A stretch of 60,226 nucleotides of DNA from a virus: IMG/VR virus record IMGVR_UViG_3300045988_163836; one strand, written 5' to 3'. Every line of letters starts with the position of its first letter. Positions within the stretch are counted from its first letter, which is position 1. Made by a program: the position numbers and the translations under genes. Shown piece by piece: positions 11,640 to 59,261 of the stretch. The notes beneath the pieces are model-generated. The model was not told the DNA's origin. It searched no databases and saw nothing but the letters and a program-made list of their open reading frames with translations.

Positions 11640-11652
11640 GGAGTTGATAATT

Positions 11653-12459
11653 ATGAATTACCATTTAGATAAATGGGTTATGGATAAAGTAGAAACTCAT
11701 TTAGAAGCAGTTAATGTCAGAGGAGAAAATTGGGTTAGCTTAATGGCTTATGGTAGCCAGAACTATGGTCTTGATACTCAATTGTCTGATGTAGATACCC
11801 GGCTTATTGTTCTTCCTTCATTTGAAGATATTGTATTGAATAAAAAGCCAGTGTCTTATACCAAGATTCTTCCTAATGATGAACACATTGATTTTAAAGA
11901 TATTCGTTTGTTCATTGATTGTTTGAAGAAACAGAATATGGCATATCTTGAATGTATCTTCACACCTTATAAAATGGCATCAAGCGTGTATTGGAATGAG
12001 TGGCAGGCACTGCTTAATGAGCGTGAAGCTATTGCACGTTATAATCCTTACAAGGCAGTTAAGACAATGAAGGGTATTGCTATGGAAAAATATCATGCAA
12101 TGGAGCATAGATATCCTACTAAAACTCATCTGATTGATACATATGGTTATGATAGTAAGCAGCTTATGCATTTGCTTCGTATCGAACAGTATCTTGGACG
12201 TTATATTGATGAGGTTAAGTATGCTGATTGTCTTCAGGCACCAAGGGGTGATTATCTTCTTGCTGTAAAAAATTATCACTATGATCTTGAAACTGCACGA
12301 ATTGTAGCAAATACTGCTATTAATAATATTACAAGAGTAGCTGATGATTATTGTTCTAAGACCAAGGATGAAGGTAATGAAGAACTTGAAGATTTTATGA
12401 ATAAGATTGTTTATCTTATTATGAAAAAAAGAATTGTAAAGGAAATGTTAAATGTCTGA
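11653..12459 (+). CDS. nucleotidyltransferase (Pol-beta superfamily)
   Basis: GSQNYGLDTQLSDVD matches the GS..G..SDxD minimal NTase motif. Confidence 0.55.
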   Translation: MNYHLDKWVMDKVETHLEAVNVRGENWVSLMAYGSQNYGLDTQLSDVDTRLIVLPSFEDIVLNKKPVSYTKILPNDEHIDFKDIRLFIDCLKKQNMAYLECIFTPYKMASSVYWNEWQALLNEREAIARYNPYKAVKTMKGIAMEKYHAMEHRYPTKTHLIDTYGYDSKQLMHLLRIEQYLGRYIDEVKYADCLQAPRGDYLLAVKNYHYDLETARIVANTAINNITRVADDYCSKTKDEGNEELEDFMNKIVYLIMKKRIVKEMLNV

Positions 12460-12656: not shown

Positions 12657-13436
12657 ATGTTCAAGGACTATCTGATTAGAGGCGATTGTCATGGTGATTT
12701 CACATGGCTTAATGCAAGAATGTTTAGAATTTTAAATCCAAAAGACTACGCAATTATTATCCTTGGAGACTGCGGTTTTAATACTGGTAGTGCATTCAGA
12801 GATAATATGAAGAAAGAATATGCAAGCCAGTTTGGATATTTTATTTATTGCGTGCATGGCAATCATGAAGTACGTCCTGAAAACGTTGAAGGTATGGAGC
12901 GTGTTTGGGATAGCAATGTTCAGGCTAATGTATGGTATGAGCCGACTCACCCTCTGATTAGATATTTTGATAATTACGGGATTTATTATCTTAAAACCGA
13001 AGATAGAGAATATCGTACATTAGTTATTGGTGGTGCTTATTCTGTTGATAAATATTATCGTCTTAAAAACAATTTGCTTTGGTGGGAAGATGAACAATTA
13101 AATAATAAAGAAAAAGTTGATGCTGAAATGCTTATTCGACAAACTAATAAGCATTTTGATCTTGTACTATCACACACCTGCCCTTATTCTCTTAGGCCAG
13201 TTGATAAATTCCTTTCAATAGTAGATCAATCTACCGTAGATACTTCTATGGAAGAATGGCTTGAAGAAATTAAGAATATGATTACATATGATGTATGGCT
13301 CTTTGGTCATTATCATTGTGATAGATTTATTAATAAGCATAATATTATCTTTTTTAATTGTATCGACCCTTTGGAAGATATTTTCCTCTGGCATGATAAA
13401 ATGGATGATGCTGTAAATAATATTGACCGCTTTTGA
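12657..13436 (+). CDS. calcineurin-like metallophosphoesterase
   Basis: Motifs RGDCHGD, ILGDCGFN and VHGNHE. Confidence 0.6.
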   Translation: MFKDYLIRGDCHGDFTWLNARMFRILNPKDYAIIILGDCGFNTGSAFRDNMKKEYASQFGYFIYCVHGNHEVRPENVEGMERVWDSNVQANVWYEPTHPLIRYFDNYGIYYLKTEDREYRTLVIGGAYSVDKYYRLKNNLLWWEDEQLNNKEKVDAEMLIRQTNKHFDLVLSHTCPYSLRPVDKFLSIVDQSTVDTSMEEWLEEIKNMITYDVWLFGHYHCDRFINKHNIIFFNCIDPLEDIFLWHDKMDDAVNNIDRF

Positions 13437-23987: not shown

Positions 23988-24078
23988 AGTATAAAAAGTC
24001 TTGGGTAAATTTCTTAATTTGAAAAAATTAAAAAAATATAATATAATATATAAGTAATCAATAAGAAATTAAATAAAT

Positions 24079-24226
24079 GGGGTCGTGGCCAAGCGGTAAG
24101 GCCGGCAACTTATCCAAGATTAGTTTAAATGGTAAAATAGTCTATGCGCAAGAAAGATGTGAGTTCAAACCTAACATTTTGGGCCAAATTGCCAAATCGT
24201 TGGTTCGAATCCAACCGGCCCCACCA
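24079..24226 (+). tRNA. tRNA (Gln-like D-arm) with about 78-nt ORF-less intervening sequence in the anticodon loop
   Basis: Acceptor ggggtcg/cggcccc, D gcc-aagcggtaa-ggc, anticodon stem ggcaa...ttgcc, T gttgg-ttcgaat-ccaac, a-cca. Insert helix ccaagat/attttgg is adjacent to the anticodon stem. Anticodon is ambiguous (UAU, UCA or CCA depending on splice position). Confidence 0.55.
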
Positions 24227-24561
24227 TATTCCAATAGAAAGGAATCAAAATAATGAAGTTGACAAATATTAAGTAGGTTGAAGATTTTATCGCAGCAGTT
24301 AATCGGGCACATAGTAATGTATGGCTGGTTAGTCCGCAGGGTGATAGATATAATATGAAATCTGCACTTTCACAGTATATTGCACTTGGTGCATTGCTCG
24401 GCCAGCATGGTGATGAATTGGAACTTTTCTGTGATAGTAAGCAGGATGAAGGCTTGTTTATTGAATTTTTTGTTCGTCATCCTGAAGTTTAATTGAAAAA
24501 TTAAAAAAAATATTATAAAATATATATACAAAATAAATGAGAAATAAATTCTCATTTGTAT

Positions 24562-24638
24562 GGGACAGTAGCTTACGAGGTCGGAGCATTGGTCTGAAAA
24601 ACCAAAGGATGGAGGTTCGATACCTCTCTGTCCCACCA
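24562..24638 (+). tRNA. tRNA-Phe (GAA)
   Basis: Cloverleaf gggacag..gctt-acgaggtcg-gagc..ttggt-ctgaaaa-accaa..ggagg-ttcgata-cctct-ctgtccc-a-cca. Confidence 0.8.
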
Positions 24639-24891
24639 ATTGGTCTTATACATGGGGTTTCCGATTTGAACTAGGTAGATTAGTCACCTACCGTTGGCAA
24701 TAGACCAATTAAAAATAAACTGAGGCAAAGGGAAATCGGGTTTTAATATATATAGCTATAAAGAAATTTTATAGTTAGCTATGATGAACTTCATAGTAAA
24801 ATCCTCTTGTAATCAAGCTAATTGGGAGAGGGGTAGCGCGGGAACGGGGAGAAGCGCGCTATAAAAGGTGAAATACTTCTTTCCACCATAT

Positions 24892-24967
24892 GCCGGTGTA
24901 GCCGAATGGCATAGGCGAATGATTTAGGATCATTAATCTGAAGGTTCGAGTCCTTTCACCGGTACCA
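24892..24967 (+). tRNA. tRNA with anticodon UAG but short variable loop (type I body)
   Basis: gccggtg..gcc-gaatggcata-ggc..aatga-tttagga-tcatt-aatct-gaagg-ttcgagt-ccttt-caccggt-a-cca. Confidence 0.6.
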
Positions 24968-25575
24968 ATAGTGAAGTAGTAGCTATACTCACTATAATCA
25001 AGGCTCGGTGGTTGGTGGCTCCATCGTTATGTAAATAAGCCATATGTATATTACTTCTTGGTGTAATGGAAGCATGCTGCCTGAAAGAGGCGGAGGTATT
25101 GGTTCAATTCCAATAGAAGGATTAATTAAAGCTGGGAAATAATAGTCGCCCATAACTAATTATTTAATATAGGACTATTATTAAAGGTTATTTAAGTTAA
25201 AGAAATGCGGTTGAAGTTATTACTTACTTGATTATAAAATAACATGACCGCAAGACGAGTTTATAGTGTGCGTCTATAAATGATCTGCCTATATGTTATC
25301 TTTTTATACTTTCTCTTTGGTTGTTTCTTGACATATAAGTAAAAACGGAAAGGGAGTTAAAGGTTCAGCTAAAAAACTGGTTTGTTTTTTGATAAGGTTT
25401 TAAAAATTAGGTGACAAAATCTTATTTGAGTGACGCTGCTCAGGAGGGTCCGGAACCTCTGAAATGCGATATGCGGTTGTAGCTCAGTCGAAAAAAATAA
25501 ATTTGGACGAAGTGAGCTAATTAATTACTTTTATTTCCTAAATATAATAGAATAAAATAGAAAGAAGGTAATTAA

Positions 25576-26139
25576 TTGCCAAAAGCCTTAGATTTAACGA
25601 ATAAAGTATTTGGAAATTTAAAATGTATTTAGAAAGCTCCTACTAGAAATAAAAAGACTTATTGGGAATGTGAATGTTTATTATGCGGAACTCATAAAAT
25701 TATTTAGACTTGTCATTTAACAGATGGTAGAACTACAAGTTGCGGGTAGCATAATGAAAATAATCTTTTTAATATTAGCAAAGAAAAGCAATGCTTAATT
25801 TGTGGAGAAAAGTTTATAACTAATAATCCTAAAAGAAAATATTGTTTTAATTGTTCTCCAGACAATATATCAGCAGCTGACCGATTAAGACATATCAAAA
25901 GAATTATTAAACATAAATTAATAGTATATAAAGGCGGAAAATGTGAAATTTGTGGTTATGATAAATGTGAAGGAGCTTTATAGTTTCATCATTTAAATCC
26001 GCAAGAAAAAGAATTTACAATTTCTCAAGTAAATTTAAATGAAGGTGAATTTTCTTTTGAAAATTTATTAAAAGAAGTTGATAAATGTTAGTTATTATGT
26101 GCTAATTGTCATGCTGAACAACATTATAAAATTGAATGA
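25576..26139 (+). CDS. HNH homing endonuclease (TTG start, 5 in-frame TAG)
   Basis: CxxC...GAL-TAG-FHHLNP...DKC-TAG-LLCANCHAEQH. TAG aligns with Gln of NFQLLCPNCH in the 59479 HNH gene. The stop overlaps the start of tRNA-Lys. Confidence 0.65.
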
Positions 26140-26212
26140 TGGTGTGGCCTAGTGGTAAGGCACCTGCCTTTTAAGCAGGGTACCGAGGGTTCAAATCCCT
26201 CCACCATCACCA
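26138..26212 (+). tRNA. tRNA-Lys (UUU)
   Basis: gatggtg..gcc-tagtggtaa-ggc..cctgc-cttttaa-gcagg-gtacc-gaggg-ttcaaat-ccctc-caccatc-a-cca. Confidence 0.85.
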
Positions 26213-26745
26213 GGTCAAGTTTGAGAAATTTCATAAAGCATCGCTGACGTTAAATGGCACTTATATGAAAACGCGTAAGTAATATAAGATAGCAAAATTC
26301 TCGTAGTTCATCCTATTAGAGAATCTTAAAGAGTAATGGCAAGATCATATTGCGGGAGACCGTGCGTATGAGATACCAATAAAGGTAGCACATCTTGTGT
26401 TGAACAAGATAAAAGATGGAAAGGATACCTGCCATGTTTGGACAGCAAAAGAAGGCGTTGAATGTAATCGAAAAACATTCCGTTGGTTCTTAGGGGAGCG
26501 ACGTAACAGTGAAACCCGAGGTTTGAGTTACCTTGTCCAAACGCTATGTATAGTCAAAGTCTAGGCAACAAGGCTTTAATTAGAGTTAAAATTGTTTTAA
26601 TTAAACTCATACTTGTGGAAATCAAGCAGATCCACTTTACTGGGCCTACTGTAAAAGCCAGTTTGATATAGCCTCCATACCCAATGAGGAATTTTTATAA
26701 AAGTCTATTTAATTTTTCTTGGCAGTTTAATTAAGTAGACTATAT
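26213..26745 (+). ncRNA. ORF-free structured block, candidate large ncRNA
   Basis: About 530 nt with no ORF in any frame, locally GC-enriched with many complementary segments, between tRNA-Lys and tRNA-Val. Confidence 0.3.
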
Positions 26746-27302
26746 GCGGGATTAGCTCAGCTGGTTAGAGCGTTTGGTTTACTCGGCAAACTCTTTTAAT
26801 TTCTATTTTATGACACGAAATTCTAAAGAAGTCGGTAATTTAGCAGAATTACAATGTATTACTGGTCTTTATGAACTGGGATGTGATATTTCATTTCCTT
26901 TTGGAAATAGTCAAAAGTATGATTTAATTATGGATTATAAAGGTAAACTTTATAAAGTTCAAGTTAAACATGCTAAAGATGAATATACATTAGGAGAAAT
27001 TACACATTTTTCTTTTGCTACGAGATGGCAAAGTCATAATACGACTGGTTATAAAAAAACTCCATACACAAAAAATGATATTGATTTTTTCGCTACTTAT
27101 CACCAAGGAAAAGTTTATTTAATTCCTGTTGAAGAATGTAGCGGAGCTACTAAATCTATTCGTTATACCCCCCCTAAAAATGGACAACGAATTGGTATTA
27201 ATTTTGCTCAAGATTATTTGGCGGAGGAGGTGTTGAAGAAATTGTAAGAGCATTGCTAAGTAATCCAAGAGGTCATTGGTTCGAATCCAATATCCTGCAC
27301 CA
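26746..27302 (+). tRNA. tRNA-Val (UAC), anticodon loop interrupted by a 482-nt ORF-containing intervening sequence
   Basis: 5' exon gcgggat ta gctc-agctggtta-gagc g tttgg tttac (Val-like GAUUAGCUCAGCUGG). 3' exon from 27265: ccaag aggtc attgg-ttcgaat-ccaat atcctgc a cca. Junctions form an extended helix ttact/agtaa + ggcaa/ttgct. Confidence 0.7.
26810..27247 (+). CDS. intron-encoded Hjc/PD-(D/E)xK-like nuclease (paralog A)
   Basis: MTRNSKEVGNLAELQC...YDLIMDYKGKLYKVQVK matches Hjc-like ERExx...D-x-x-A...(E/Q)VK. Fills the tRNA-Val intervening sequence with about 27 nt 5' and about 17 nt 3' non-coding. Paralogs at 56076 and 57052. Confidence 0.65.
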   Translation: MTRNSKEVGNLAELQCITGLYELGCDISFPFGNSQKYDLIMDYKGKLYKVQVKHAKDEYTLGEITHFSFATRWQSHNTTGYKKTPYTKNDIDFFATYHQGKVYLIPVEECSGATKSIRYTPPKNGQRIGINFAQDYLAEEVLKKL

Positions 27303-27367
27303 ATAAATTTGAAAATTTAAAAAAAATATTATATAATATATATATAATAATAAAGGAGATATTTGAA

Positions 27368-27535
27368 ATGGCAACTACTAAAAAACCTGCAATTAAAATG
27401 GATAATACAGAGTTGAACGAGTATCTTCTGTTTCGTCGTCGTAGATCTATTGTGCCTGCCAAGAAAGGTAAGGGTATGGAATATGATAGGGCGAAAGAAA
27501 AAGAGAAATCTGAAAAAATGATTTCTGATGAATAA
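27368..27535 (+). CDS. small basic protein
   Basis: 56-codon ORF after promoter motif 27310-27350 and an SD. Confidence 0.3.
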   Translation: MATTKKPAIKMDNTELNEYLLFRRRRSIVPAKKGKGMEYDRAKEKEKSEKMISDE

Positions 27536-27537
27536 AT

Positions 27538-27614
27538 CGGCGCATAGACAAATAGGTATAGTCACTACCCTTTCAAGGTAGAATGTAGGGGTTCGATCCC
27601 CCTTGCGCTGACCA
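27538..27614 (+). tRNA. tRNA-Glu (UUC)
   Basis: cggcgca..gac-aaataggtata-gtc..ctacc-ctttcaa-ggtag-aatgt-agggg-ttcgatc-cccct-tgcgctg-a-cca. Confidence 0.75.
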
Positions 27615-27619
27615 TTTAT

Positions 27620-27695
27620 GGTGCTGTAGTTTAGTTGGAAGAATGCCAGCCTGTCACGCTGGAGGTCATGGGGTCAGGACCCATCAGCATCGCCA
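27620..27695 (+). tRNA. tRNA-Asp (GUC), unusual T-loop GUCAGGA
   Basis: ggtgctg..ccagc-ctgtcac-gctgg-aggtc-atggg-gtcagga-cccat-cagcatc-g-cca. Confidence 0.65.
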
Positions 27696-27725
27696 TTCGC
27701 TTTCCCGATATAAGCGATTTTGAAA

Positions 27726-27787
27726 CATAGAACTTGATAGAGCGTTCTATTAATCTGATTAGATTAAGTTTTATAACTATCATATTT
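27726..27787. repeat. about 62-nt structured leader element, copy 1
   Basis: catagaacttgatagagcgttctattaatctgattagattaagttttataactatcatatttgg has a second copy at 28813-28883 with a 7-nt insertion. It has two hairpins and immediately precedes a tRNA. Confidence 0.6.
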
Positions 27788-27863
27788 GGGGCACGGGACT
27801 GCATGGAGTGGTCGTCTCCCTTGCAAGGAGAAAAGCAGATGAGTTCGATTCTCATGTGTTCCA
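27788..27863 (+). tRNA. tRNA-Ala (UGC), no encoded CCA
   Basis: ggggcac..tctcc-cttgcaa-ggaga..atgag-ttcgatt-ctcat-gtgttcc-a; G3-U70 is present; 7-nt variable region. Confidence 0.6.
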
Positions 27864-27995
27864 GTCATCTAATATTCACAACCGCCACGAGGTAGATGAT
27901 GGGTAATGCTAATAGTGGATAAAACGAAAATCGGGCAAAGCAAGTTAAACTCCTTAAAGTTTTTATCAAATATAGTAGAAAAGGAGTTGAATTAA

Positions 27996-28628
27996 ATGCC
28001 TAAAAAATTAACTCAAGAAGAATTTGAGCAAAGAGTTTATGAATGCGTTGGAGATAAATATTCTGTTATAAGCGAATATAATGGAAAATCTAAACCAATA
28101 GATTTAAAGTGTAATATTCATAACATTATATTTCAAGTATCGGCAGAGTGTTTTATGCGAGGTCCAAAAGAAATAAGATGTTCTTGTCCTAAATGTTCAG
28201 AAGAAAAGAAAAATGAAAAATTTTCTATAAATAGAACAGAATTAGAATGTGCTTATTGCGGAAGAAAATTTATTCGTTCAAATTCTAAATTAAATAATTC
28301 AAAAAGTGGAATATATTTTTGTTGTAGAGAACATAAAGATTTGGCTCAAAGAATAGATTTCGGATTAAAAGAAATTCAGCCAAATCATTATGGAAATGCT
28401 GTTGAAAATATTCATAACTATCGTAAAAATGCTTTTCGATATTATTCTCATAAATGTGCAGTCTGTGATTGGAATGAAGATGAAGATATCTTAGAAGTTC
28501 ATCATATTGATGAAAATCGAGATCATAATGAACTATCTAATTTAATTATTCTTTGTCCTATATGTCATAGAAAACTTAGTTCACATAAATATAAATTGAT
28601 TGATAGAGAACAAATTGTTCTTTGTTAA
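27996..28628 (+). CDS. HNH homing endonuclease
   Basis: Zn-finger CxxC pairs plus EVHHIDENRDHN...LIILCPICH; no internal TAG. Confidence 0.75.
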   Translation: MPKKLTQEEFEQRVYECVGDKYSVISEYNGKSKPIDLKCNIHNIIFQVSAECFMRGPKEIRCSCPKCSEEKKNEKFSINRTELECAYCGRKFIRSNSKLNNSKSGIYFCCREHKDLAQRIDFGLKEIQPNHYGNAVENIHNYRKNAFRYYSHKCAVCDWNEDEDILEVHHIDENRDHNELSNLIILCPICHRKLSSHKYKLIDREQIVLC

Positions 28629-28702
28629 TAAATAGTGTGATATATTCCAAACACGTAGGGTGGTAAGCACACGGGTTTTCTAGAAGCCTTCCCTATGAAC
28701 AT

Positions 28703-28778
28703 GGATGCATAGCTCAGTTGGTAGAGCAATTGACTGTTAATCAATGGGTCGGAGGATCATACCCTTCTGCATCCGCCA
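28703..28778 (+). tRNA. tRNA-Asn (GUU)
   Basis: ggatgca ta gctc-agttggta-gagc a attga-ctgttaa-tcaat gggtc ggagg-atcatac-ccttc tgcatcc g cca. Confidence 0.7.
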
Positions 28779-28812
28779 CCGCACTTGCGGAAAACATACA
28801 ACTCAACTGGTG

Positions 28813-28883
28813 CATAGAACTTGATGGAGCGTTCTATTAGTCTGATGCCTGCATTAGATTAAGTTTTATAACCATCATACTTG
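28813..28883. repeat. structured leader element, copy 2
   Basis: catagaacttgatggagcgttctattagtctgatgcctgcattagattaagttttataaccatcatacttgg. Confidence 0.6.
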
Positions 28884-28957
28884 GGGACATAGTTTATGGT
28901 AGGAAAACGTTGAATTTAATTCAAAGTCGAGGGTGCGATTCCCTCTGGCTCCACCAT
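28884..28957 (+). tRNA. noncanonical tRNA, anticodon arm ttgaa-tttaa-ttcaa (possible anticodon UUA)
   Basis: ggggaca ta gttt-atggtagga-aaac g ... agtc gaggg-tgcgatt-ccctc tggctcc a cca. The loop is 5 nt, or 7 nt (atttaat) if the last stem pair opens. Confidence 0.45.
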
Positions 28958-29089
28958 TTATGAAAGACAATACAGCAATTATACATTTGCTTTGGGAGCC
29001 GTGTGTTATAGGTTCGAGTCCTATTGTTTGGTCGAAGACCGAATATAGCGTAATTGGTAGCGCAACGTATAAAATTGTCTTGTTAATAT

Positions 29090-29162
29090 TGCGGGATCGT
29101 CAAGTGGTTAAGACACCAGCCTCATAAACTGGTTATCGTGGGTTCGAATCCCACTCCCGCAA
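29090..29162 (+). tRNA. tRNA-Met (CAU)
   Basis: tgcggga tc gtc-aagtggttaa-gac a ccagc-ctcataa-actgg ttatc gtggg-ttcgaat-cccac tcccgca a; loop CUCAUAA. Confidence 0.6.
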
Positions 29163-29288
29163 GAGATACATTAATCAAGCCTCCACGGGGCGTATCTTGG
29201 GTAATGCTAATTGATTAAAAAATTTTTGGTCGCGGAAAATTAATTTTGCAACCAAAATTTCCATAATATTATGGAGGAGATAATAATT

Positions 29289-29939
29289 ATGGCTTATATT
29301 TATTAGATAACAAATAATATTAATGGAAAAATTTATGTTGGTAAAACATTAAAAAATAATATTTAGGAACGTTGGAAAGAACATTTAAGAGATTATAAAA
29401 AATCTAAATATGAAAAACGTCCTTTATATAACGCAATAAATAAATATGGTCCAGAAAATTTTTCTATTAAGGAATTAGAAGAATGTTCTGCTGAAGAAGC
29501 TAGCGAAAAAGAAATTTATTGGATTGAGAAATTAAACTCTTTTAAATATGGATATAATGCTACTAAAGGAGGAGATGGCAAGATAAAATATGACCATCAA
29601 AAAATTTTAGAAGCATTAAGAATAAATCCACGTCCAATTGAAATAGCTAAATTATTTAATTGTAGTTGTGATTTAGTTCAATAGATAGCTAAAGAACACC
29701 AAATTTAGATAATTAATCAAAGTAATGAATAGATGAAAAAAGAAAAATCCAAAAGTATTAGGCAATATAATAAAAATGGAATATTAATTAATACTTTTGA
29801 TTCTGTAGCAGAAGCTGGACAATGGTGTTTTGAAAATAAAAAATGTCTAAATTATAATTCTGGAGTTAGAAGTCATATTGCTGAATGTGCAAATGGAAAA
29901 CGTAAAACAGCATATGGTTATATCTGGAAATATATATGA
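29289..29939 (+). CDS. GIY-YIG homing endonuclease (6 in-frame TAG)
   Basis: MAYIY-TAG-ITNNINGKIYVGKT...YWIEKLNSFKYGYN is a GIY-YIG motif. A conserved leader (agcctccacggggcg) is shared with the 54788 paralog. Lies just downstream of tRNA-Met. Confidence 0.7.
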
Positions 29940-30066
29940 TTTATATGAAAAGCCCATACAGCAACTTTTAATAGGATAAATAAGAAATTCTGCAAAAATT
30001 TTTTAGAGTTGGTTCAAATCCAGCAAATGATTTTAGGGTTTTGTTAAAATTGTTAAGGAGAAAATA

Positions 30067-30252
30067 ATGAAGTTTAATCCAGGAGACAAGGTCTGGTGCA
30101 AGAGATATGGTAAGGGTAAGTGCCGCAAGGCTGATAATAAGGATAATTTTATGACTTATCTTTTCAGATTTTATGATGGCACTTTAATTTGGATGTCAAA
30201 ATATCAGGCTGAACATTTTGTAAAAGTTCGTTCCACCGAGGCCACGGTGTGA
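30067..30252 (+). CDS. small hypothetical protein
   Basis: Track ORF with SD aaggagaaaataatg. Confidence 0.35.
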   Translation: MKFNPGDKVWCKRYGKGKCRKADNKDNFMTYLFRFYDGTLIWMSKYQAEHFVKVRSTEATV

Positions 30253-30411
30253 ATATAAAGTCCGGTTATAGGAAATCCTGTCATTAGGCAGCAGGCTACC
30301 GGTAATCCTTTCTTATATATTTAAATATGTAAGGAACAAAAACTATACAATAGATAGAGTTTTTACGCCTTGGCGCAATGCTTGTTTTTTACTATCTATT
30401 TTTTTATATTT

Positions 30412-30498
30412 GGAGTCGTGGGATAATGGTATTCCAATGGATTGCTAATCCATCCTACCTCTTAGGTAGTCCGCGTTCGAGTCGCGGCGATTCCGCCA
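30412..30498 (+). tRNA. tRNA-Ser (GCU), type II
   Basis: ggagtcg..atgga-ttgctaa-tccat + long arm cctacctcttaggtagt + ccgcg-ttcgagt-cgcgg-cgattcc-g-cca. Confidence 0.85.
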
Positions 30499-30501
30499 TA
30501 T

Positions 30502-30595
30502 GTAGGAGTGCCAGAGTGGTCGATTGGGTTAGTCTCCAAAACTAATTGTAGCTACACATCCAGGGTTCGAATCCCTTGCTCCTATGCGGTATCAT
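30502..30595 (+). tRNA. type II (long variable arm) tRNA with anticodon CCA
   Basis: gtaggag tg ccag-agtggtcga-ttgg g ttagt-ctccaaa-actaa + arm ttgtagctacacatc + caggg-ttcgaat-ccctt..ctcctat. Confidence 0.45.
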
Positions 30596-30990
30596 ATAGA
30601 GAACCTTTCCGTGGTGATACTATTTAAACTAATCTCTATGAAACTTATTTCCACTTTTTTAAGTTTCTATGGTTAAACCCTGTTGAGGGCAAAGACTACA
30701 GGGTATTCCTTTCCATCCCTCATACATTAAGACTCATTTTCAGCAAACTTTTGCCTGCAAAGGTTCTACATACTTATTTATTACTAATAGATGAAAAAGT
30801 ATAATAAAGAAAATAAAGTATATTTTGAAAAGTTTTTTCTTTTTAGCTAGTTTAGTAAGCTAAATTCCGCGTTTTTATTTTGGCTTTTCAATGAGTCTTG
30901 TTTTTTAAAATAATTGGTATCGCTAAGCTTCATGGTAATTGTGGCGTATTTAAATCATAGATAGTTAAGGGTCTATAGCCAATTATAATA
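30596..30990 (+). ncRNA. ORF-free structured block
   Basis: About 390 nt without ORFs between two tRNAs; contains hairpins. Confidence 0.25.
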
Positions 30991-30991
30991 T

Positions 30992-31080
30992 GCGGAATTA
31001 ACTTGCCCGGCGGTAAGCCTTGTCTTGAAAACAAGTGGTCCTGTGACAGGGATGGGGATCGACACCTCAGTTCCGCGCCA
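30992..31080 (+). tRNA. tRNA-Ser (UGA), type II
   Basis: gcggaat..cttgt-cttgaaa-acaag + arm tggtcctgtgacagggat + gggg-atcgaca-cctca gttccgc g cca. Track ORF 31003-31227 overlaps it and is rejected. Confidence 0.7.
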
Positions 31081-31122
31081 CTCGTTTCAAATTCGTTCAT
31101 TGCATTTCATCCTTTCTGTAAA

Positions 31123-31165
31123 GATGGACTGATTAGATTAATCAGTCCATCTTTTTTTTTATATA
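31123..31165 (+). terminator. rho-independent terminator
   Basis: aaagatggactgattagattaatcagtccatcttttttttt. Confidence 0.7.
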
Positions 31166-31442
31166 TTTTAAAGACAGTAGGTTATAGGGGTTCGGGCCGA
31201 CTTGGACCATTAAAACCGAATGCTTGAATTAAAATTCCATTTAAGAAATTTTCGGTCCAACAGGTATAGAGCAATATAAAATAATTTTAAATATGAAAGG
31301 AGAAGAACAATATGAAAATGTTTATTCTTTCATATAAGGGCGGCAAAGATGGCGGCGACATTGATAAAGAAGATACTTCCAAGTCAACGGGCGGCTGGGA
31401 TGGCGGCTCTATAGATGATGATTAAAGAAAGGAGAACACGAG

Positions 31443-32516
31443 ATGGCTGAAATTATTAAATTAAGACGCGGTAAATCAACTAGCTGGTCTAAAAAGAATA
31501 TAATTCTTGCAGCTGGTGAAATCGGCGTAGAACTTGATACACATTAGATTAAAGTCGGCGATGGTTCAACCCCTTGGAATGAACTATCTTATGTAGGCGG
31601 AACTAAAGTTGTTAATGTTCAAGAATACACTGATAATCCTGCGGTTGTAGATGGTGTGCCTTATCAATCTATTGATGTGGCATTTATGAAAGCTCCAGCA
31701 GGAAGTACAATTCGTCTTAATGCTAACTTTGATAACAGTGTTTCTATTGATAAAGCATTGACTATTGAATTAAATGGTAATGATATTATTAATAATGAAA
31801 AAACGCCAATAGATATCAAAGCAAACGGCGATTTAACTATTAAGGGCCAAGGTACTATTGAATGTAATAAGAATGAAAATGCCGCAGTTTTTAATAATGG
31901 TAATATTACTATTAATAATGGTAAATTACAACGTACTACTGATGTAGCAGGTAATGGTTATTATACTGCTGTTAATCATGGCACTATGACAATCAATGGC
32001 GGCATGTTTATGAGTGGTGGCGAATTTTCTAGCATGATTGAAAATGGCTATTGGGATTATCACGCTGGTAATACTACTAATGGCTATGTTCAAGGCCAAA
32101 ATGCTGAAATGCCTACATTAACTATTAATGATGGTACATTCGCTGGCGGCTTATATGCTATAAAAAATGATGATAATGCTGTTTTAAATATTAATGGCGG
32201 CACATTCTATAATACTATTCTTGCTAATGGTAAGTCAATAACTATCACTGATGGGTATTTTGAAAATAGTAAGCCAAGTCAAGGCGAATATAATTTTTAT
32301 CTTCGTAAATTAAGTGAAGATTTAAATCCTCAAAATACATATATTAGCGGTGGTACATTTATTACTGCACAAGATAAGAATTTCAAGGTTGAGGGCGACC
32401 CTCGTATTGAAATTAGTGGTGGTCGTTTTAATAGAGAATTAGATCCTTCTTATCTAGCTCCTGGCTATAGACAAGTACTTGTCAATGGCTTCTATACTGT
32501 CTAGAAGGAGGAATAA
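31443..32516 (+). CDS. tail fibre protein with HylP-like N-terminal domain (TAG read-through)
   Basis: MAEIIKLRRGKSTSWSKKNIILAAGEIGVELDTH-TAG-IKVGDGSTPWNELSYVGG resembles the streptococcal phage HylP/tail-fibre N-terminus. The pectate-lyase-like G-rich body matches track ORF 31656-32504. Confidence 0.6.
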
Positions 32517-53694: not shown

Positions 53695-54570
53695 ATGAAA
53701 AAAATAAATTTAAATTGTCCGGGATTTTATACTGGATTTAATATATATAAAACTCTTTTAGAATTACAATAGACAGCTCCAGAATGTTTCAATTTTAATG
53801 TAGCTATAGAGAGTATATTCGATACATTCCCAAATATGATTTGGAATGGAGGAACTGTCAATCAAGGCTATCAACCTTCATTAGAAAAAATAAAAGAAAT
53901 TATTGATTTTTATTATGGAAATAATATAGAAATTGCTTTAACCTTAACAAATCCATTATTAACAAAAGAAGACTTGTATGATAGATATTGTAATAAAATC
54001 GTTTCCTTATGTGAAAATGAAAATAATTCAATTTTAGTTTCTTCCTCTATTTTAGAAGAATATATAAGAAATAAATATCCTAAATTTAAAATTAAAAGAA
54101 GTATAATAGCTTCAAATAAAAATACAGATTATTTGTCTCTTTTAAATAAATATGATAAAATTGTTTTACCTCGAAGACAAATAAAAGATTTTAAGTTTTT
54201 AGAATCAATTCCAATAGAAGTAAGAAATAGATTTGAACTTTTATGCAATGACCCTTGCCCGATTATTTGTCCATATTTATATAAACATTATAATGGATTT
54301 GCTAAAATAACTTTATATGAAGAAGTAACTTCAAAAGATATTTTAAAATGTAAAACATTAAAAAGTGATGATCCTTTAAAGAATTTTCATTATAAGAATG
54401 ATCAAATTACTTATAATGAAATATGTGAAAAATATTTACCATTATTTTATAACAGCTTTAAATTAAGCGGTCGAAATGATGTATTCACTATAATTTTTTC
54501 AATAGTTCCTTTTTTCTTTAAGCAAGAATATCAATTAGAATTAGCACATTATTTATGTTGTATAATTTGA
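53695..54570 (+). CDS. paralog triad member C
   Basis: MKKINLNCPGFYTGFNIYK...MIWNGGTVNQGYQP. Confidence 0.5.
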
Positions 54571-54635
54571 AAATTTAAAAAAAATTTTATATAATATATA
54601 TAGAAATTGAGGGAAAAATAAATTCTCTCTTAAAT

Positions 54636-54708
54636 GCCGGCATAGCACAGTTGGTAGTGCAATTGATTTGTAATCAATAGGTCGGGGGTTCGAATCCGTC
54701 TGCCGGCT
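54636..54708 (+). tRNA. tRNA-Thr (UGU), no encoded CCA
   Basis: gccggca ta gcac-agttggta-gtgc a attga-tttgtaa-tcaat aggtc ggggg-ttcgaat-ccgtc tgccggc t. Confidence 0.7.
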
Positions 54709-54787
54709 CGCTATCATGTGAAAGCCTTCTCGTGGCGATAGTGTTTTAACTAATTTCACAATTATTTATTAAAGGAGTCATTTAGAT

Positions 54788-55423
54788 ATGGCATACATTT
54801 ATTAGATAATAAATAATATTAATGGAAAAATTTATGTTGGTAAAACAGTAAAAAATAATATTTAGGAACGTTGGAAAGAACATCTTAAAGATTATAAAAA
54901 ACCTAGATGTGAAAAACGTCCTTTATATGACGCAATGAATAAATATGGTTCAGAAAATTTTTCTATTAAAGAGTTAGAGGAATGTCCATTAGAAGAACTT
55001 AATGATAAAGAAGTTTATTGGATTGAAAAATTAGGTTCTTTTAAATATGGATATAACGCTACAATTGGCGGAGATGGCAAACAATATATTGACTATGATT
55101 TAGTATGCGAAACATATAAGAATTTACAATGTATTGTAGATACTGCTAAACAATTAAATATTAGTGAAGATTCAGTTTCTAAAATTTTAAAATTATATAA
55201 AATTGATATTATTCCTAATGCTAAAATAGTTCAAAATAAGTATGGGAAAATAATTAATATGTATGATTTAAATGATAATTATTTAAGGACTTTTCCATCA
55301 ACAACTGAAGCAGCTAAATTTATGGTAGAAAATAAATTAACTAATTGTAAAATGACTACTATAAAACAACATATTTCTGAAGTATGCAAATGTAAACGAA
55401 ATACAGCTGCTAAGTTTAAATGA
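54788..55423 (+). CDS. GIY-YIG homing endonuclease 2 (in-frame TAG)
   Basis: MAYIY-TAG-IINNINGKIYVGKT; paralog of the 29289 gene. A long hairpin lies downstream around 55463-55545. Confidence 0.7.
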
Positions 55424-55629
55424 AAATATGCTTAATTATTATACCATTAGCCAAGATTGGATAGTTAATAAAACCGTTTCTAGTTAATAGATTCTAGATG
55501 GCCGGGACTCAAAACTGCTGGCAATTCTAATCTTGGCTATTTTCTTTTATTTGAAAAAATTAAAAAAATAGTATATAATATATATACAAAATAAAGAAAA
55601 AAATAAATGAGAAAAAGGTGTTAAAAGTT

Positions 55630-55983
55630 ATGGAATATTCTCTGGATAAGTACAAGTATTTTATTCCCACTAAGGCAGATGGTACGCCGTATAAGGTTGT
55701 TGCAGTTTCTACTTATGCTGGTAGGACTGTGCGTGGTGTAGCCAAGTGTGATCCGAAGGATACATTTGATACTGAAAAGGGTAAGCAGCTTGCCGCAGCA
55801 CGTTGCCAGGCGAAGGTCAGTTCTCAGCGTCTGAAGCGTGCTACTAAGAAGCTTGATGAAGCTGCTAAGGCACTTGAGAAGGCACAGAAGTATTATGATG
55901 ATATGACTGTGTATTTCAATGATAGTGCAAGAGATAAGGAAATGTATGATAGCGTAGTTGAAAGACTCGCTAAGGAAATGTAA
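55630..55983 (+). CDS. Lys/Ala-rich small protein, atypically GC-rich
   Basis: Intact ORF with higher GC than the genome; followed by terminator gggtaattaattaccc (55991-56008). Confidence 0.5.
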   Translation: MEYSLDKYKYFIPTKADGTPYKVVAVSTYAGRTVRGVAKCDPKDTFDTEKGKQLAAARCQAKVSSQRLKRATKKLDEAAKALEKAQKYYDDMTVYFNDSARDKEMYDSVVERLAKEM

Positions 55984-56013
55984 TAAATAAGGGTAATTAA
56001 TTACCCTTTATAT

Positions 56014-56569
56014 CCGGGTGTAGTTCAGTTTGGTAGAACGCTTGATTTGGGAAAAGAGATTTTTGTCTAAAAAATATGTTAGATATTACTCAACAGAAAG
56101 GAACTGTAACAGAGTTAAGATGTATTCTTGATTTAACTAATCTTGGATATAGATGTTTAAAATCTGTTGATGAAAGTTCTAAATATGATGTAGTAGCTGA
56201 TATGGGGATGGGTAAATTTATCCGTATTCAATGTAAAACATCTTCTTGGGTTACTGATACAAAAGAACCTAATGTAGCTTTTGCAATTGCTACAAGTTGT
56301 ATTACCACTAATACAAAATCTACTACTCGTCATAAGTATTCAAAAGATGATATTGATTATTTTTATACTTGGTTTGAAGGCCAAGGATATTTAGTTTCCA
56401 TTGAAGAAGCTACTGGTGCAACTTTTAGATGGCGGTATGAATATCCTTCATCTGGTCAAAAACAGGGTATTCATATCGCTAATGATTACAAAATTGAGGA
56501 GGTCTTAAAGACAATCTAAGATTTTCCTGGATCAAGAGGCCGTGAGTTCAAGTCTCGCCACTCGGACCA
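56014..56569 (+). tRNA. tRNA-Pro (UGG) interrupted by about 480-nt ORF-containing intervening sequence
   Basis: 5' exon ccgggtg ta gttc-agtttggtag-aac g cttga tttggg. 3' exon from 56532: tcaag aggcc gtgag-ttcaagt-ctcgc cactcgg a cca. Junction helix tttgggaaaa/ttttcctgga plus ttgtct/agacaa. Confidence 0.7.
56076..56519 (+). CDS. intron-encoded Hjc/PD-(D/E)xK-like nuclease (paralog B)
   Basis: TELRCILDLTNLGYRCLKSV...YDVVADMGMGKFIRIQCK; fills the tRNA-Pro intervening sequence. Confidence 0.65.
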   Translation: MLDITQQKGTVTELRCILDLTNLGYRCLKSVDESSKYDVVADMGMGKFIRIQCKTSSWVTDTKEPNVAFAIATSCITTNTKSTTRHKYSKDDIDYFYTWFEGQGYLVSIEEATGATFRWRYEYPSSGQKQGIHIANDYKIEEVLKTI

Positions 56570-56918
56570 TCAGGGTTCTGTTAAAGATACATAATTGAAA
56601 AGGATTGATCTCCCTAAGTAGATTTGTATTGGAATGAAAAAATGAGGTCTAGATGACACAGATAACCTCCCCTGAACCATCCCTTTTGTTAGTAGGTTGT
56701 CGGGGTTAAATAACTAACAGTAAAGACACACGCAGCAAATATTAGATAAAATCTATGTGTTATTGGTTCAAGTCCAATATTATCTCTGTTAAGATAATTC
56801 ATCCAAAGGGTAGGATAATAGTTAATTTATTTAATGTGTCTTGTAAATTTGAATTTTAAAAAAAAATATTATATAATATATAAGTAATCAATAAGAAATT
56901 ATTAATTACTTATAATTT

Positions 56919-56993
56919 ACTGGTGTCGCCAAGCGGTAAGGCACAGGACTTTGACTCCTGTATTCGTTGGTTCAAATCCAGCCACCAGTGCCA
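56919..56993 (+). tRNA. tRNA-Gln (UUG)
   Basis: actggtg tc gcc-aagcggtaa-ggc a cagga-ctttgac-tcctg tattc gttgg-ttcaaat-ccagc caccagt g cca; leader is shared with the tRNA at 24079. Confidence 0.8.
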
Positions 56994-56997
56994 ATAT

Positions 56998-57525
56998 AGG
57001 TCAGTACAGTGTAATTGGTATCACCCCTGACTGGTTTGAAGGAGGTTCATTTTGTAGTCAAAAAGTAACAAAGATAAAGGACGTTTTGGATTAGCTATGG
57101 CTATTGCCTATTTCACTGACAAAGGCTATACAGTCTCAACTCCTTTAAATGATACTCAGTGGTATGATTTAATTATAGAACGAAATGGTAAATTTTAGAC
57201 AGTTCAATGTAAATGTACTGGAAGTTAGGATAATGTTATAATGTTAAGATCTTGCGGTGGTACTAAAGGAACTGTTTATGATAATGTTTTAAATCATTCT
57301 GAGCTTGATTTATTATTTTGTATAGATGTTCAAGGTAATATGTATGTAATTCCATTAAAAGAAATTTTAAAATCAGGAAATACAAAATAGATTACTTTAC
57401 GAACAGCTCCAACAAGCAATAATCAAGGCTTTTAGACTTATAAATTTCGAGTTCGATTCTCGTTTCAAACACCATAAATCAGGTGCTTAATGCGGTTGTT
57501 GGTTCAAGTCCAACCTGGCCTACCA
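56998..57525 (+). tRNA. tRNA-Tyr (GUA, type II) interrupted by about 440-nt ORF-containing intervening sequence
   Basis: 5' exon aggtcag ta c agtg-taattggta-tcac c cctga ctg (to 57033). 3' exon from 57475: taaa tcagg + arm tgcttaatgcggtt + gttgg-ttcaagt-ccaac ctggcct a cca. The spliced loop CUGUAAA matches the Tyr consensus. Confidence 0.6.
57052..57477 (+). CDS. intron-encoded Hjc/PD-(D/E)xK-like nuclease (paralog C, TTG start, 6 TAG)
   Basis: KGRFGLAMAIAYFTDKGYTV...YDLIIERNGKF-TAG-TVQCK; SD aaggagg; the TAA stop overlaps the first nt of the 3' exon. Confidence 0.55.
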
Positions 57526-57584
57526 TTTAAAATAAAATTTGAAAATTTAAAAAAAATATTATATAATATATATATAATAAATGA

Positions 57585-58925
57585 ACTTTAAAAATTAAAT
57601 AATAATTTAATTACGGTTATAGTACAACTCAGTGCAGACTTAACACCATAAGGCTGAGAAATCGATCCACTCTGGCGGAGATTGTAGAATGGAATATTCA
57701 AAGGATACTTTGAAATTATTTCTAAATCTTTTGTAGTGATACATTAGATTCACGCATCGAAGGATGCGGCTACGGGGAGATTGTGCTGGGATAATCGCAT
57801 TTAAGGTCCTGTTCTTCTCGCTTCCATAATAGACAGCATTGTTAACAGCAATGCCGAATCCTTGTTAGGGTAAGGCTGGTAACCTTGCCAAACCAAGGAA
57901 ATACCAATAAGGAAGTTGGCAATTGATGTGGCGTAATCTACTATAAGAGAAGGTCAAGGGTCAAGTAGCCGAAATTTGCCAAGACAGTATGATATTAATT
58001 TAGTAAAAATTATTGGTAATACTATTCTGAATGGTCGGTGAAAGATAGAGGTAGTCAGTCCTCTGTGAGATTTGGCTTAGGCCGGGGCAAGAAGTTATGA
58101 AGTCGCTATTCATAGCTCAGACTTGTTTCCTTACTTACCTAATAAAATGAAGATTATTAACCAGTAGGGCGAAGGTCCGTAGTATAATTGTAATTAAGTT
58201 ATTATTTAATAACTTACGATTTCCTTTCCTGTTAAAAATAAATCATTAAATGATTTATTTGAAATGAATTATGTAGATGCTAATATAGGCGGTGGCTTGC
58301 ACATTAACCTCATTGGGTAGCCAATCCCACATCGTTAGAGGCCTCTGCGGAACCTGCTCCTATGGCTGTAGGGTTCTTACATAATCTAATCAAATAAGGT
58401 TGACTCGCCTGTTGTCCGGTGAAATGATATATCTGGAAACCGTACTGATACGTATCAGATATTTGATTAGCGTCCTAATCTTGGTTAATTAGGTAGTGGA
58501 ACAATACGCTAAACCAGCCAGCTCTCCACTATAAATAAGCTGAATAGGGATGTTTGTGGCTCACATACCAAAAAGCCATTACCAAGTGCGGAAATAAGAT
58601 CCTTGGTAGTCTCTCATATAAAGGCGTGGAAAATGAGACGTAATGGACTACGAAAAAGACATATAATAGGTAGAGTTATTATTTATTGTGTTAGATTATA
58701 GAATGAAAATCCTATTATTAAAAACTGTATATTCTACTTCCTATTGGTAGGTATTATAAGTTTAATGGTAGGTCAAAAATTTAATATATTCCAATAGCTA
58801 ATGAATGAGGTAGGCTGAAGTACTTAGTGGCGTGGGCAGGCATAGAGGCGACCTATAAATGGTTAGTGGCTATGGTGTAGTTTATTCCTATTGGATATAT
58901 TAATTTTTGTAAATATATTCTACTG
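57585..58925 (+). ncRNA. large ORF-free structured RNA candidate (GOLLD/ROOL-like by size and context)
   Basis: About 1.3 kb with no ORF of 60 aa or more on either strand, locally GC-enriched and rich in complementary stretches. Preceded by promoter motif 57545-57580 and flanked by tRNAs. Confidence 0.45.
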
Positions 58926-59087
58926 AATAATTTGATTTTAAAAAAATTATTTAGTATAATATATTTACAAGATAAAGAGAAGTTAGGATAATTTCTCTAA
59001 GACAGTTTCAGTAAATTTTTATTAAAGATAATCATATGTTTTTTGGTTCATAAGAAGATACTTTATTAAACTGTCTTGTATATATAT

Positions 59088-59162: not shown

Positions 59163-59261
59163 GGCGTAAGGCTCACGCAGCAAATTTACTTTTGAAAGTT
59201 CACCTAAAATGAATTGCTATTTTTCAAAATTGAGTCTTGATTTAATTAATATAGTTTATTT

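Follow-up and report, generated by a model that had tools for sequence, protein, structure and literature searches.

The DNA analysed here (IMG/VR virus record IMGVR_UViG_3300045988_163836; 60,226 nucleotides (nt), taken as a whole and called the window below) belongs to a TAG-recoded phage with ~30% G+C, in which all genes lie on the + strand and long open reading frames (ORFs) emerge only if TAG counts as a sense codon. It contains two islands of transfer RNA (tRNA) genes, at ~24.0-31.2 kb and 54.6-60.2 kb, in which homing-endonuclease genes are inserted, and the subject of this work is a leader element shared by several of these genes. We consider it probable, with about three chances in four, that this leader is a minimal ribozyme of the hepatitis delta virus (HDV)-like type, a theta ribozyme, located at the end of tRNAs without encoded CCA, and that tRNA, ribozyme and nuclease gene constitute a unit in which self-cleavage would free both the tRNA and the nuclease mRNA. 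This reading is carried by the fold of the element and its covariation, its position at tRNA ends, the order of the genes, the insertion and deletion junctions with respect to relatives, and a statistical link between ribozymes and nuclease genes in other phages. Theta ribozymes have been described as minimal HDV-like ribozymes with their cleavage site at the 3' ends of gut-phage tRNAs, mostly those without encoded CCA (Kienbeck et al., Nat Commun 2024, PMC10879173); that study tied them to tRNA maturation and code switch, demonstrated Mg2+-dependent self-scission for four theta ribozymes other than the present ones, and left their origin and spread open.

The published layout was re-implemented as a descriptor (P1, J, P2, P3, U, P1.1, NCGN, P3', P1', P1.1', J, CNRA, P2'), whose scan of the window returned four copies, all on the + strand and each starting no more than 2 nt from a tRNA end (G1 at 27864, 29163, 30588, and 54710 vs. 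tRNA ends at 27863, 29162, 30587, and 54708/9). Control descriptors in which A, G or U replaced the catalytic C gave no independent match in the window. In all four copies, P1 has 6-7 bp and opens with a G1.U wobble, P3 has 3 bp, P4 is absent, and a CTAA is present in which the catalytic C opens the J4/2 strand. The P2 pseudoknot was paired at 7/7 positions in the Met, Thr, and 30588 copies; for the Ala copy the figure was 6/7, or 7/7 when an alternative register was used. The copy behind tRNA-Met(cat) (tRNA at 29089-29162, +, no encoded CCA) is a canonical theta ribozyme (29163-29217, +; segments in the order of the layout GAGATAC-AT-TAATCAA-GCC-T-CC-ACGG-GGC-GTATCTT-GG-GTAATG-CTAA-TTGATTA): it matches the published layout with zero mismatches and has the complete L3/P1.1 arrangement, namely U-NN-NCGN with two Watson-Crick P1.1 pairs. 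A theta-like ribozyme of Ala type (27864-27920, +; GTCATCT-AAT-ATTCACA-ACC-G-CC-ACGA-GGT-AGATGAT-GG-GTAATG-CTAAT-AGTGGAT) follows an unusual variant of tRNA-Ala(tgc) lacking an encoded CCA (27787-27863, +). The two remaining theta-like copies belong to a U21.U39 subclass; one of them, of Thr type (54710-54760, +; GCTATC-A-TGTGAAA-GCC-T-TC-TCGT-GGC-GATAGT-GT-TTTAA-CTAA-TTTCACA), lies behind tRNA-Thr(tgt), which extends to the discriminator U54708 plus C54709 (54636-54709, +), and the other (30588-30639, +; GGTATC-AT-ATAGAGA-ACC-T-TT-CCGT-GGT-GATACT-AT-TTAAA-CTAA-TCTCTAT) behind a long-arm tRNA without encoded CCA (30502-30587, +; anticodon CCA by ARAGORN). Three of the four ribozymes precede a nuclease gene (27864, 29163, and 54710) and the copy at 30588 is an orphan, followed by ~480 nt of non-coding sequence in which no decayed nuclease gene was found, even at E < 100. 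Judging by reading, the tRNAs of the window without encoded CCA were the four ribozyme-bearing ones and an odd tRNA at 25052, the rest encoding CCA. The tRNA at 30502-30587 is 86 nt long, with a long variable arm, and its Rfam score was higher as tRNA-Sec (39 bits) than as tRNA.

An Rfam scan at gathering thresholds reported no ribozyme in the window; matches were exposed in E-value mode, in which the model RF02682 (HDV-F-prausnitzii) matched 27864-27931 over its full length in a local search (32.0 bits, E = 8.5e-5) and scored 20.7 bits at 29163-29218. The copies were filed under theta ribozymes, and not under RF02682, because the RF02682 model has a P4 and the minimal forms do not. The sequence GGGTAATGCTAAT was present at least 393 times in the part of the supplementary tables of PMC10879173 that was covered, and the exact ribozyme sequences of the window had no match in that same part, which makes this negative weak evidence. 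The original prediction had pointed to a conserved leader before the two GIY-YIG genes, and this shared element proved real and correctly placed to within 1-2 nt: its two instances coincide with the ribozymes at 29163 and 54710, and 29163-29217 and 54710-54760 have in common AAGCCTYCNCGKGGCG (2 matches in the window vs. 0.47 expected at up to 3 mismatches). Likewise, a box had been reported to recur before an HNH and a GIY-YIG gene, at 27899 and 29200; the recurrence stands, as the 14-mer TGGGTAATGCTAAT occurs exactly twice in the window, although at 27900 and 29198. A 43-nt repeat (72% identity) also joins 27882-27924 to 29180-29222. Within the ribozyme, the box tgggtaatgctaat corresponds to the end of P1', P1.1', a short linker in place of P4, and J4/2, the strand of the catalytic C.

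Orthologous ribozymes in relatives differed mostly by compensatory changes in P1, P2, P3, and P1.1, with L3 and J4/2 constant. P2 covaries in L109, L303, L165, and L169 (L numbers denote the loci used for comparison). Double changes in P1, in P2 (three), in P3, and in the 22-38 pair of P1.1 distinguish the 30588 copy from its orthologue in L109; the Ala copy differs from the L169-L174 orthologue by two compensatory changes and one wobble change in P1 and by one change in P2, and the Thr copy from the orthologues in L375, L303, L165, and L428 by compensatory changes in P1, P2, and P3. Conservation in relatives had been proposed as a check on the leaders, and they were conserved, with base changes of the compensatory kind. 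The variant cores (U.U in P1.1 and G in L3) recurred in relatives as well, which suggests selection. On these comparative grounds we regard all four copies as theta-type ribozymes under selection, and catalytic activity of the Ala, Thr, and 30588 variants appears plausible.

Each of the two GIY-YIG genes lies directly behind a tRNA, as had been noticed before (tRNA-Met ending at 29162 and tRNA-Thr, 54636-54708). Gene 1 (29289-29939, +; Pfam GIY-YIG 1.5e-11 and a weak NUMOD1 match, 0.0021) contains 5 TAG codons and gene 2 (54788-55423, +; GIY-YIG 9.3e-11, NUMOD1 7.8e-9) contains 2, and both ORFs are intact when TAG is read as sense (translated as Q). A PHROG match to homing endonucleases (8.6e-33) was obtained for GIY-YIG, along with the combination of an N-terminal catalytic domain and a C-terminal DNA-binding module. 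The two paralogues were 54% identical overall and ~82% identical over residues 1-97, the catalytic domain. The gene behind the Ala copy is a free-standing HNH gene (27996-28628, +; Pfam HNH 2.1e-6; no TAG) with 564 homologues at E ≤ 1e-10.

GenBank phages, searched by Megablast with both islands, gave no match or tRNA-sized matches only, and no close relative. The nearest relative was the contig IMGVR_UViG_3300045988_164919, represented by L109 for the first island and L373 for the second. In the second island, the flanks 54132-54709 and 55444-56052 were 99.8% identical to L373, and 54710-55443 (+) is one 734-nt insertion, in which the ribozyme is followed by a leader of 27 nt, GIY-YIG 2, and a further 20 nt. 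The CCA that was thereby separated from tRNA-Thr is found at 55444-55446, the insertion being located between the tRNA body and its CCA: L373 reads ..gccggctCCAttagcc.. at the site, and the window ..gccggctC[insertion]CCAttagcc... In the first island, L109 keeps tRNA-Met and a ribozyme 100% identical to 29163-29217 with no GIY-YIG gene behind; ~20 nt replace there the GIY-YIG cassette 1 (29220-29940, +; a two-hairpin leader plus the ORF 29289-29939), and the left junction falls 2 nt past the ribozyme. The same relative has a canonical tRNA-Ala-CCA in place of the block formed by the odd tRNA-Ala, the ribozyme, and HNH 27996. Three allelic states could thus be recognised at tRNA-Met, with CCA only (L386, L388), ribozyme only (L109), and ribozyme plus GIY-YIG (window), and again at tRNA-Thr, with CCA only (L373, L374, L377, L372, L376, L395), ribozyme only (L428), and ribozyme plus GIY-YIG (window, L375, L379). 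A metagenome scan with the 3' end of tRNA-Thr returned mostly alleles without ribozyme or nuclease gene, many of them without encoded CCA, L428 being the single informative ribozyme-only allele. Elsewhere, L165 and L166 have identical flanks around tRNA-Glu, which is tRNA-Glu-CCA in L166 and in L165 a different allele continued by ribozyme, GIY-YIG, and a CCA relic; a 689-nt GIY-YIG insertion sets L251 and L244 apart from L219 and L264, its start lying 3 nt past an identical ribozyme. Ribozyme-only alleles exist too, so ribozyme and nuclease may have arrived together or one before the other. Identity to the relative was 80-94% in the first island vs. 98-99.8% in the second; the divergence of the former (24043-31612 vs. 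54132-60226) agrees with either intense gene conversion near the nuclease genes or a mosaic origin.

The association was followed in 120 unrelated IMG/VR loci retrieved by the ribozyme core alone (ACCTCCACGTGGT-N6-7-GGRTWA), with P1 and P2 unconstrained. Among 94 unique core-anchored segments of this sample, P1 was fully paired in 88 (6.1 expected with swapped partners) and P2 was paired at 7/7 in 46 (2.6 expected with swapped partners), which marks the retrieved ribozymes as genuine. The loci were analysed by ARAGORN, the descriptor scan, and a local hidden Markov model of the GIY-YIG family, after removal of duplicate tRNA-plus-flank sequences. A GIY-YIG gene of the window's family was located within 300 nt behind 23 of the 54 ribozyme-bearing tRNAs (~43%), in contrast with 3 of the 538 tRNAs without ribozyme from the same loci (3/323 if no other tRNA lay within 150 nt); the Fisher P of ~1e-20 to 1e-23 is overstated, as related phages were treated as independent. 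The linked genes, which typically have 15-40 nt in front of their ATG and encode proteins of 208-219 amino acids (aa), fell into 12 clusters at 60% identity, were found behind six tRNA types (Met, Leu(taa), Leu(tag), Thr, Gln, and Pro), and occurred in both standard-code and recoded phages. Four distinct tRNA-ribozyme pairs, whose cores are identical and whose P1 and P2 are unrelated, preceded genes of one cluster at 60% identity, and the U.U class of ribozymes tracked tRNA-Thr(tgt) with or without GIY-YIG (window, L375, L379, L303, L241, L428, and L214/L249, with another gene behind it). The ribozyme is chiefly a feature of the tRNA allele, and the nuclease family is chiefly a neighbour of tRNAs; where phages have ribozymes, both occur together far above chance and can be gained or lost as one block. 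The idea of a pre-nuclease module holds in that the shared element is statistically tied to endonuclease genes beyond the window; its co-regulatory side found no support. The variable ribozyme helices track the tRNA and not the nuclease.

Some broader formulations were abandoned. An obligatory ribozyme for the nuclease family was dropped, since the loci collected by GIY-YIG similarity (45, with no upstream ribozyme in the descriptor scan) or by profile (80, of which only the closest dozen lay in tRNA islands, 2-3 of these with a ribozyme) were mostly devoid of it. A general link between ribozymes and HNH genes of the 27996 type was discarded as well, this type following 0/119 canonical ribozymes. 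The bare 14-mer was too unspecific as an IMG/VR probe (>119 unrelated loci, L109 among them). In five loci (L181, L188, L193, L201, and L287), theta ribozymes were found behind suppressor tRNA(CTA), followed 19-34 nt later not by a nuclease gene but by a conserved family of small ORFs (93-103 aa), of which the 93-aa member had no Pfam or PHROG match. The ribozyme itself is known; its tight association with homing endonucleases appears to be undescribed, as no report linking theta or HDV-like ribozymes with homing endonucleases was found in the openly searchable literature (subscription-only sources excluded) and the word endonuclease is absent from the main text of PMC10879173.

A 34-nt promoter motif (TTGAAA-17-TATAAT) was present 8 times in the window vs. 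0 expected. One sigma-70-type copy (27309-27337, +; 11/12 match) heads an operon beginning with a 55-aa ORF; no comparable promoter was detected on the + strand between 27337 and 29830, and a strong intrinsic terminator (31120-31164, +; a 16-bp stem followed by a T run) closes the operon. HNH 27996 and GIY-YIG 29289 would accordingly be embedded in a tRNA operon of roughly 3.9 kb, from the promoter at 27309 to the terminator at 31120. In the second island, the promoter of the tRNA-Thr unit lies at 54567-54595 (+) and the next copies at 55551 and beyond, so tRNA-Thr, ribozyme, and GIY-YIG 2 probably form a unit between two promoters. The distance from ribozyme to ATG was 27, 71, and 75 nt in the window and 1-82 nt elsewhere. 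HNH 27996 has a 5' leader of its own in this interval (27921-27995, +) with a pairing against the Shine-Dalgarno (SD) sequence (ACUCCUU:AAGGAGU), whose fold (27921-28007; z = -2.9) is predicted to cover the SD in part; the same motif precedes an 80%-identical HNH gene in L165, with no ribozyme there. For GIY-YIG 1, two hairpins were predicted (~29224-29292; fold of 29218-29300, z = -3.6), the second of which (29261-29292) covers part of the SD, and both recur in L001, whose orthologue is 66% identical. No such hairpin was predicted for the leader of GIY-YIG 2 (z = -1.5). A weaker form of the operator idea may therefore apply to the predicted SD-covering hairpins between ribozyme and ATG.

According to the mechanism that we propose, a single promoter of the tRNA operon would yield one RNA with tRNA, ribozyme, and nuclease gene, and the ribozyme would cut directly 5' of its own G1. 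This cut would set the tRNA's 3' end, at the discriminator for Ala and Met and at the discriminator plus C for Thr, and would leave the nuclease mRNA with the folded ribozyme as a 5'-OH leader. The tRNA would end in a 2',3'-cyclic phosphate, with healing and CCA addition carried out by host or phage enzymes. Candidates for the end repair are an RlaP-type nucleotidyltransferase and a metallophosphoesterase encoded side by side in the phage: an RlaP-family Pol-beta nucleotidyltransferase ('RNA repair pathway') was found at 11644-12459 and a calcineurin-like phosphoesterase at 12657-13436. Since tRNA maturation would be indifferent to the sequence downstream, the slot behind the ribozyme would offer a transcribed, low-cost site for a nuclease gene. 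If the putative endonuclease cuts its target, homing of its gene would copy the adjacent ribozyme allele into tRNA-CCA alleles devoid of ribozyme. The TAG codons in the GIY-YIG genes (five or two) could limit translation to the phase in which the suppressor tRNA is active.

Several observations weigh against this reading. No copy attained the RF02682 gathering score of 44, and the Thr copy had no Rfam match at all. The Thr and 30588 copies possess one Watson-Crick P1.1 pair (22-38, covarying) beside the conserved U21.U39 mismatch, and in the Ala copy G occupies the first L3 position, which is U in >97% of the published set as far as its tables were covered. Co-transcription is deduced from the absence of promoter matches, and the enrichment counts were de-duplicated at sequence level only. 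No GIY-YIG gene was located behind 31 of the 54 ribozymes of the sample, nor behind the 30588 copy of the window; conversely, in four loci from SD-using phages (L294, L295, L298, and L299) close GIY-YIG relatives lie 29-42 nt behind CCA-encoding tRNAs without any ribozyme, and the 27996-type HNH of L165 sits behind a tRNA-like gene with CCA.

Two other explanations of the element can be judged from its structure. The original prediction took the shared hairpin and box for a translational operator or co-regulatory leader, in agreement with the presence of the element upstream of three nuclease genes and with the separate SD-covering hairpins nearer the start codons, conserved in L001 and L165. 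However, the element parses as a theta ribozyme and its conserved nucleotides are exactly those of the HDV-like catalytic core and the pseudoknot helices; its first base abuts the tRNA and not a ribosome-binding site (RBS), at a spacing to the ATG that varies (27-75 nt here), and it also exists with no nuclease gene downstream (30588, tRNA-Met of L109, tRNA-Thr of L428), all of which makes the operator very improbable and already disfavoured. A generic coincidence in AT-rich DNA, named beforehand as one outcome that would overturn the prediction, might be argued from the 14-mer, which at up to 3 mismatches was not enriched (21 matches vs. 12 expected); this explanation is refuted, nevertheless, by the two exact 14-mers, the 43-nt repeat, a four-helix architecture that covaries in relatives, and the control motifs, which gave no independent match.

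More difficult to separate are two views on which partner came to the other. The ribozyme might be the older tRNA resident, with the GIY-YIG enzyme recognising the DNA of its core and/or of the T arm and inserting 2-4 nt behind it, a view that makes the ribozyme a target and not a partner and that overlaps in part with the tRNA-ribozyme-nuclease unit preferred here. It would account for identical tRNA-ribozyme pairs with and without nuclease gene and with junctions 2-3 nt past P2', for one GIY-YIG cluster (at least 60% identity) behind at least four tRNA-ribozyme pairs with unrelated helices and identical cores, and for ribozyme subclasses that track the tRNA (the U.U class with tRNA-Thr(tgt)); moreover, SegB of phage T4 recognises the T-psi-C motif of tRNA genes (PMC2330249). 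Nevertheless, tRNA-Thr-CCA and tRNA-Glu-CCA alleles devoid of ribozyme acquired ribozyme and nuclease in one step, therefore a ribozyme in the recipient is not needed, and related enzymes home behind tRNAs with an ordinary CCA; this view is possible, and we lean away from it. Alternatively, the ribozyme could have come with the nuclease as one selfish cassette, ribozyme-only alleles being those in which the nuclease decayed and the ribozyme persisted because the CCA and the normal 3' signals were gone. The single 734-nt indel at tRNA-Thr with the CCA relic at its right junction, the relic in L165, the three-state allelic series at tRNA-Met and tRNA-Thr, and the lack of a known mobility mechanism for a lone ribozyme speak for such a cassette. 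On the other hand, the variable ribozyme helices do not follow the nuclease clade, the GIY-YIG paralogues of the window carry different ribozyme classes in spite of being 82% identical in the catalytic domain, the ribozyme-only allele of L428 does not derive from the window allele by deletion alone (CCATT is missing and P2 differs), and the ribozymes of suppressor tRNAs precede an unrelated family of small ORFs, so that we consider a composite origin rather unlikely. Returning to the unit of tRNA, ribozyme, and nuclease gene, we tentatively propose, at a little short of even chances, that theta ribozymes and SegB-like GIY-YIG genes may be a co-evolving selfish module at phage tRNA 3' ends, in which homing would drive ribozyme alleles through populations of gut phages, and many orphan ribozymes could be invasion footprints or immunity alleles, and not code-switch devices.

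As regards the nuclease genes in general, the dense colonisation of the tRNA islands announced in the original prediction was borne out: 7 of the 8 genes are absent from the nearest relative with precise junctions and can for that reason be considered recently mobile, the HNH ORF at 59479-59925 being the sole one in common. The islands harbour eight homing-endonuclease ORFs (2 GIY-YIG, 3 HNH, and 3 PDDEXK_5) in roughly 10 kb, one more than the seven counted before, and in-frame TAG codons occur in four of them, not three: 25576 (5), 29289 (5), 54788 (2), and 57052 (5). The two free-standing HNH and the two GIY-YIG genes were located as predicted, with Pfam or PHROG support once TAG is read as sense. 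The second free-standing HNH gene (25576-26139, +; PHROG HNH phrog_2255, 6.6e-25; 5 TAG) had no Pfam match even at E ≤ 1 and abuts tRNA-Lys (26138-26212), its stop (26137-26139) overlapping the tRNA start at 26138 by 2 nt, just as had been described; the segment 25476-26143 that includes it is absent from L109, where a different tRNA-Lys allele was found. That allele (reverse strand, ~1424-1570 of the reverse complement) has a 58-nt insert in the anticodon loop resembling the 3' half of a tRNA (T arm, acceptor strand, CCA), and an Rfam tRNA match of the window that is ~70 nt too long (24079-24223) may contain a similar mini-insert. The third HNH ORF is located inside a split tRNA (59479-59925, +; PHROG HNH 1.6e-27). 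The PDDEXK_5 ORFs (Pfam 1.3e-25, 3.7e-19, and 1.7e-17) occupy introns of tRNA-Val(tac) (intron 26783-27264, +), tRNA-Pro (56053-56528), and tRNA-Tyr (57034-57474), none of which matched Rfam intron models. The first is absent from L109 and the other two from the corresponding part of the relative, with intact tRNAs in each case, and from 57475 to 60226 the window was collinear with L373 and 98.2% identical. The three host tRNAs, tRNA-Val(tac) at 26746-27296, tRNA-Pro(tgg) at ~56005-56562, and tRNA-Tyr(gta) at ~56997-57530, have introns of ~440-480 nt consisting nearly entirely of the PDDEXK_5 ORF.

Other features of the islands were recorded. The sequence 28954-29088 is tRNA-like and maybe circularly permuted: a GAA loop closes its T arm and acceptor, and a D arm follows. 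Its Rfam matches, at 26.7 bits to YrlA and at 25 bits to permuted tmRNA, were below threshold; conservation was 95% in L109 and lay at 74-89% across several unrelated phage loci. A spacer of 66-74 nt that contains two small hairpins is present twice (27726-27791 and 28813-28886, 94% identical), directly upstream of tRNA-Ala and of the tRNA at 28883. The short conserved motif GGAGGGNCCGG..CC(U)CU.AAAUGCGAU was found in a non-coding spacer of three related phages (window 25440-25475, L001 1640-1690, and L109). Long non-coding stretches with above-average G+C at 26213-26745, 30640-31120, and 58200-58900 were 86-93% conserved in the relative and had no Rfam match; they may be undescribed structured RNAs. 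A ROOL RNA (57604-58197, 323 bits) and a RAGATH-33 RNA (60099-60211, 139 bits) lie in the second island, the ROOL-side units being each preceded by a TTGAAA-17-TATAAT promoter motif. A SAM synthetase is encoded at 1221-2378.

Compared with published theta ribozymes, those of the window share the double pseudoknot without P4, the G1 at the 3' end of CCA-less tRNAs, and the setting in gut Caudoviricetes with TAG recoding, and the Met copy matches the published pattern exactly. They differ in the GIY-YIG gene found behind ~43% of the ribozymes in the 120-locus sample, in the departure of three window copies from the motif, and in the suppressor tRNA(CTA) of the window (59088-59162), which has CCA and no ribozyme. 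The analogy to the T4 seg genes drawn by the original prediction was apt: SegB is a free-standing GIY-YIG enzyme of the T4 tRNA cluster that recognises T-arm DNA, is absent from close relatives, and co-converts flanking tRNA genes (PMC2330249), and the window likewise shows indels and swapped tRNA alleles beside its nuclease genes. In contrast with the window, segB has no ribozyme and the density of nucleases is far lower; insertion in the present case took place at the discriminator/CCA boundary or immediately past the ribozyme. The label SegB-like refers to gene type, location, and signs of mobility, and not to a sequence comparison with SegB. As in introns and inteins with homing endonucleases, a self-processing element beside the nuclease gene would keep the invaded host gene, here a tRNA, functional. 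A single self-cleavage at the 3' end would nevertheless take the place of excision and ligation, the nuclease gene remains outside the mature product, and the partnership is loose, either part occurring alone. HDV-like ribozymes reportedly also stand at the 5' ends of non-LTR retrotransposons such as R2; in R2, too, the element sits within an RNA gene that is strongly transcribed, shares its transcript, and is freed by a 5' ribozyme kept as mRNA leader, steps that would have their counterpart here. R2 is a eukaryotic retroelement of rRNA genes in which the cut serves the element, whereas here a DNA-level homing cassette would lie in phage tRNA operons and the cut would also make the functional end of the tRNA. 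Translation of intron-encoded and free-standing endonucleases of T4 is controlled by RBS-sequestering hairpins; the predicted SD-covering hairpins of GIY-YIG 1 (29261-29292) and HNH 27996 would be comparable, and they are distinct from the element flagged by the original prediction.

If ribozyme and nuclease indeed travel together, homing with co-conversion would provide a mobility engine for theta ribozymes, and self-cleavage at the 3' terminus would be a third way of sparing the host gene, beside intron and protein splicing, as well as a prokaryotic parallel to the 5' HDV-like ribozyme of the R2 retrotransposon. For annotation, TAG-split nuclease genes should be sought behind ribozyme-bearing tRNAs. 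The natural empty, ribozyme-only, and full alleles could be used directly as substrates for cleavage and homing, and the variant cores, with U.U in P1.1 or G in L3, would constitute natural tests of the tolerance of the HDV fold.

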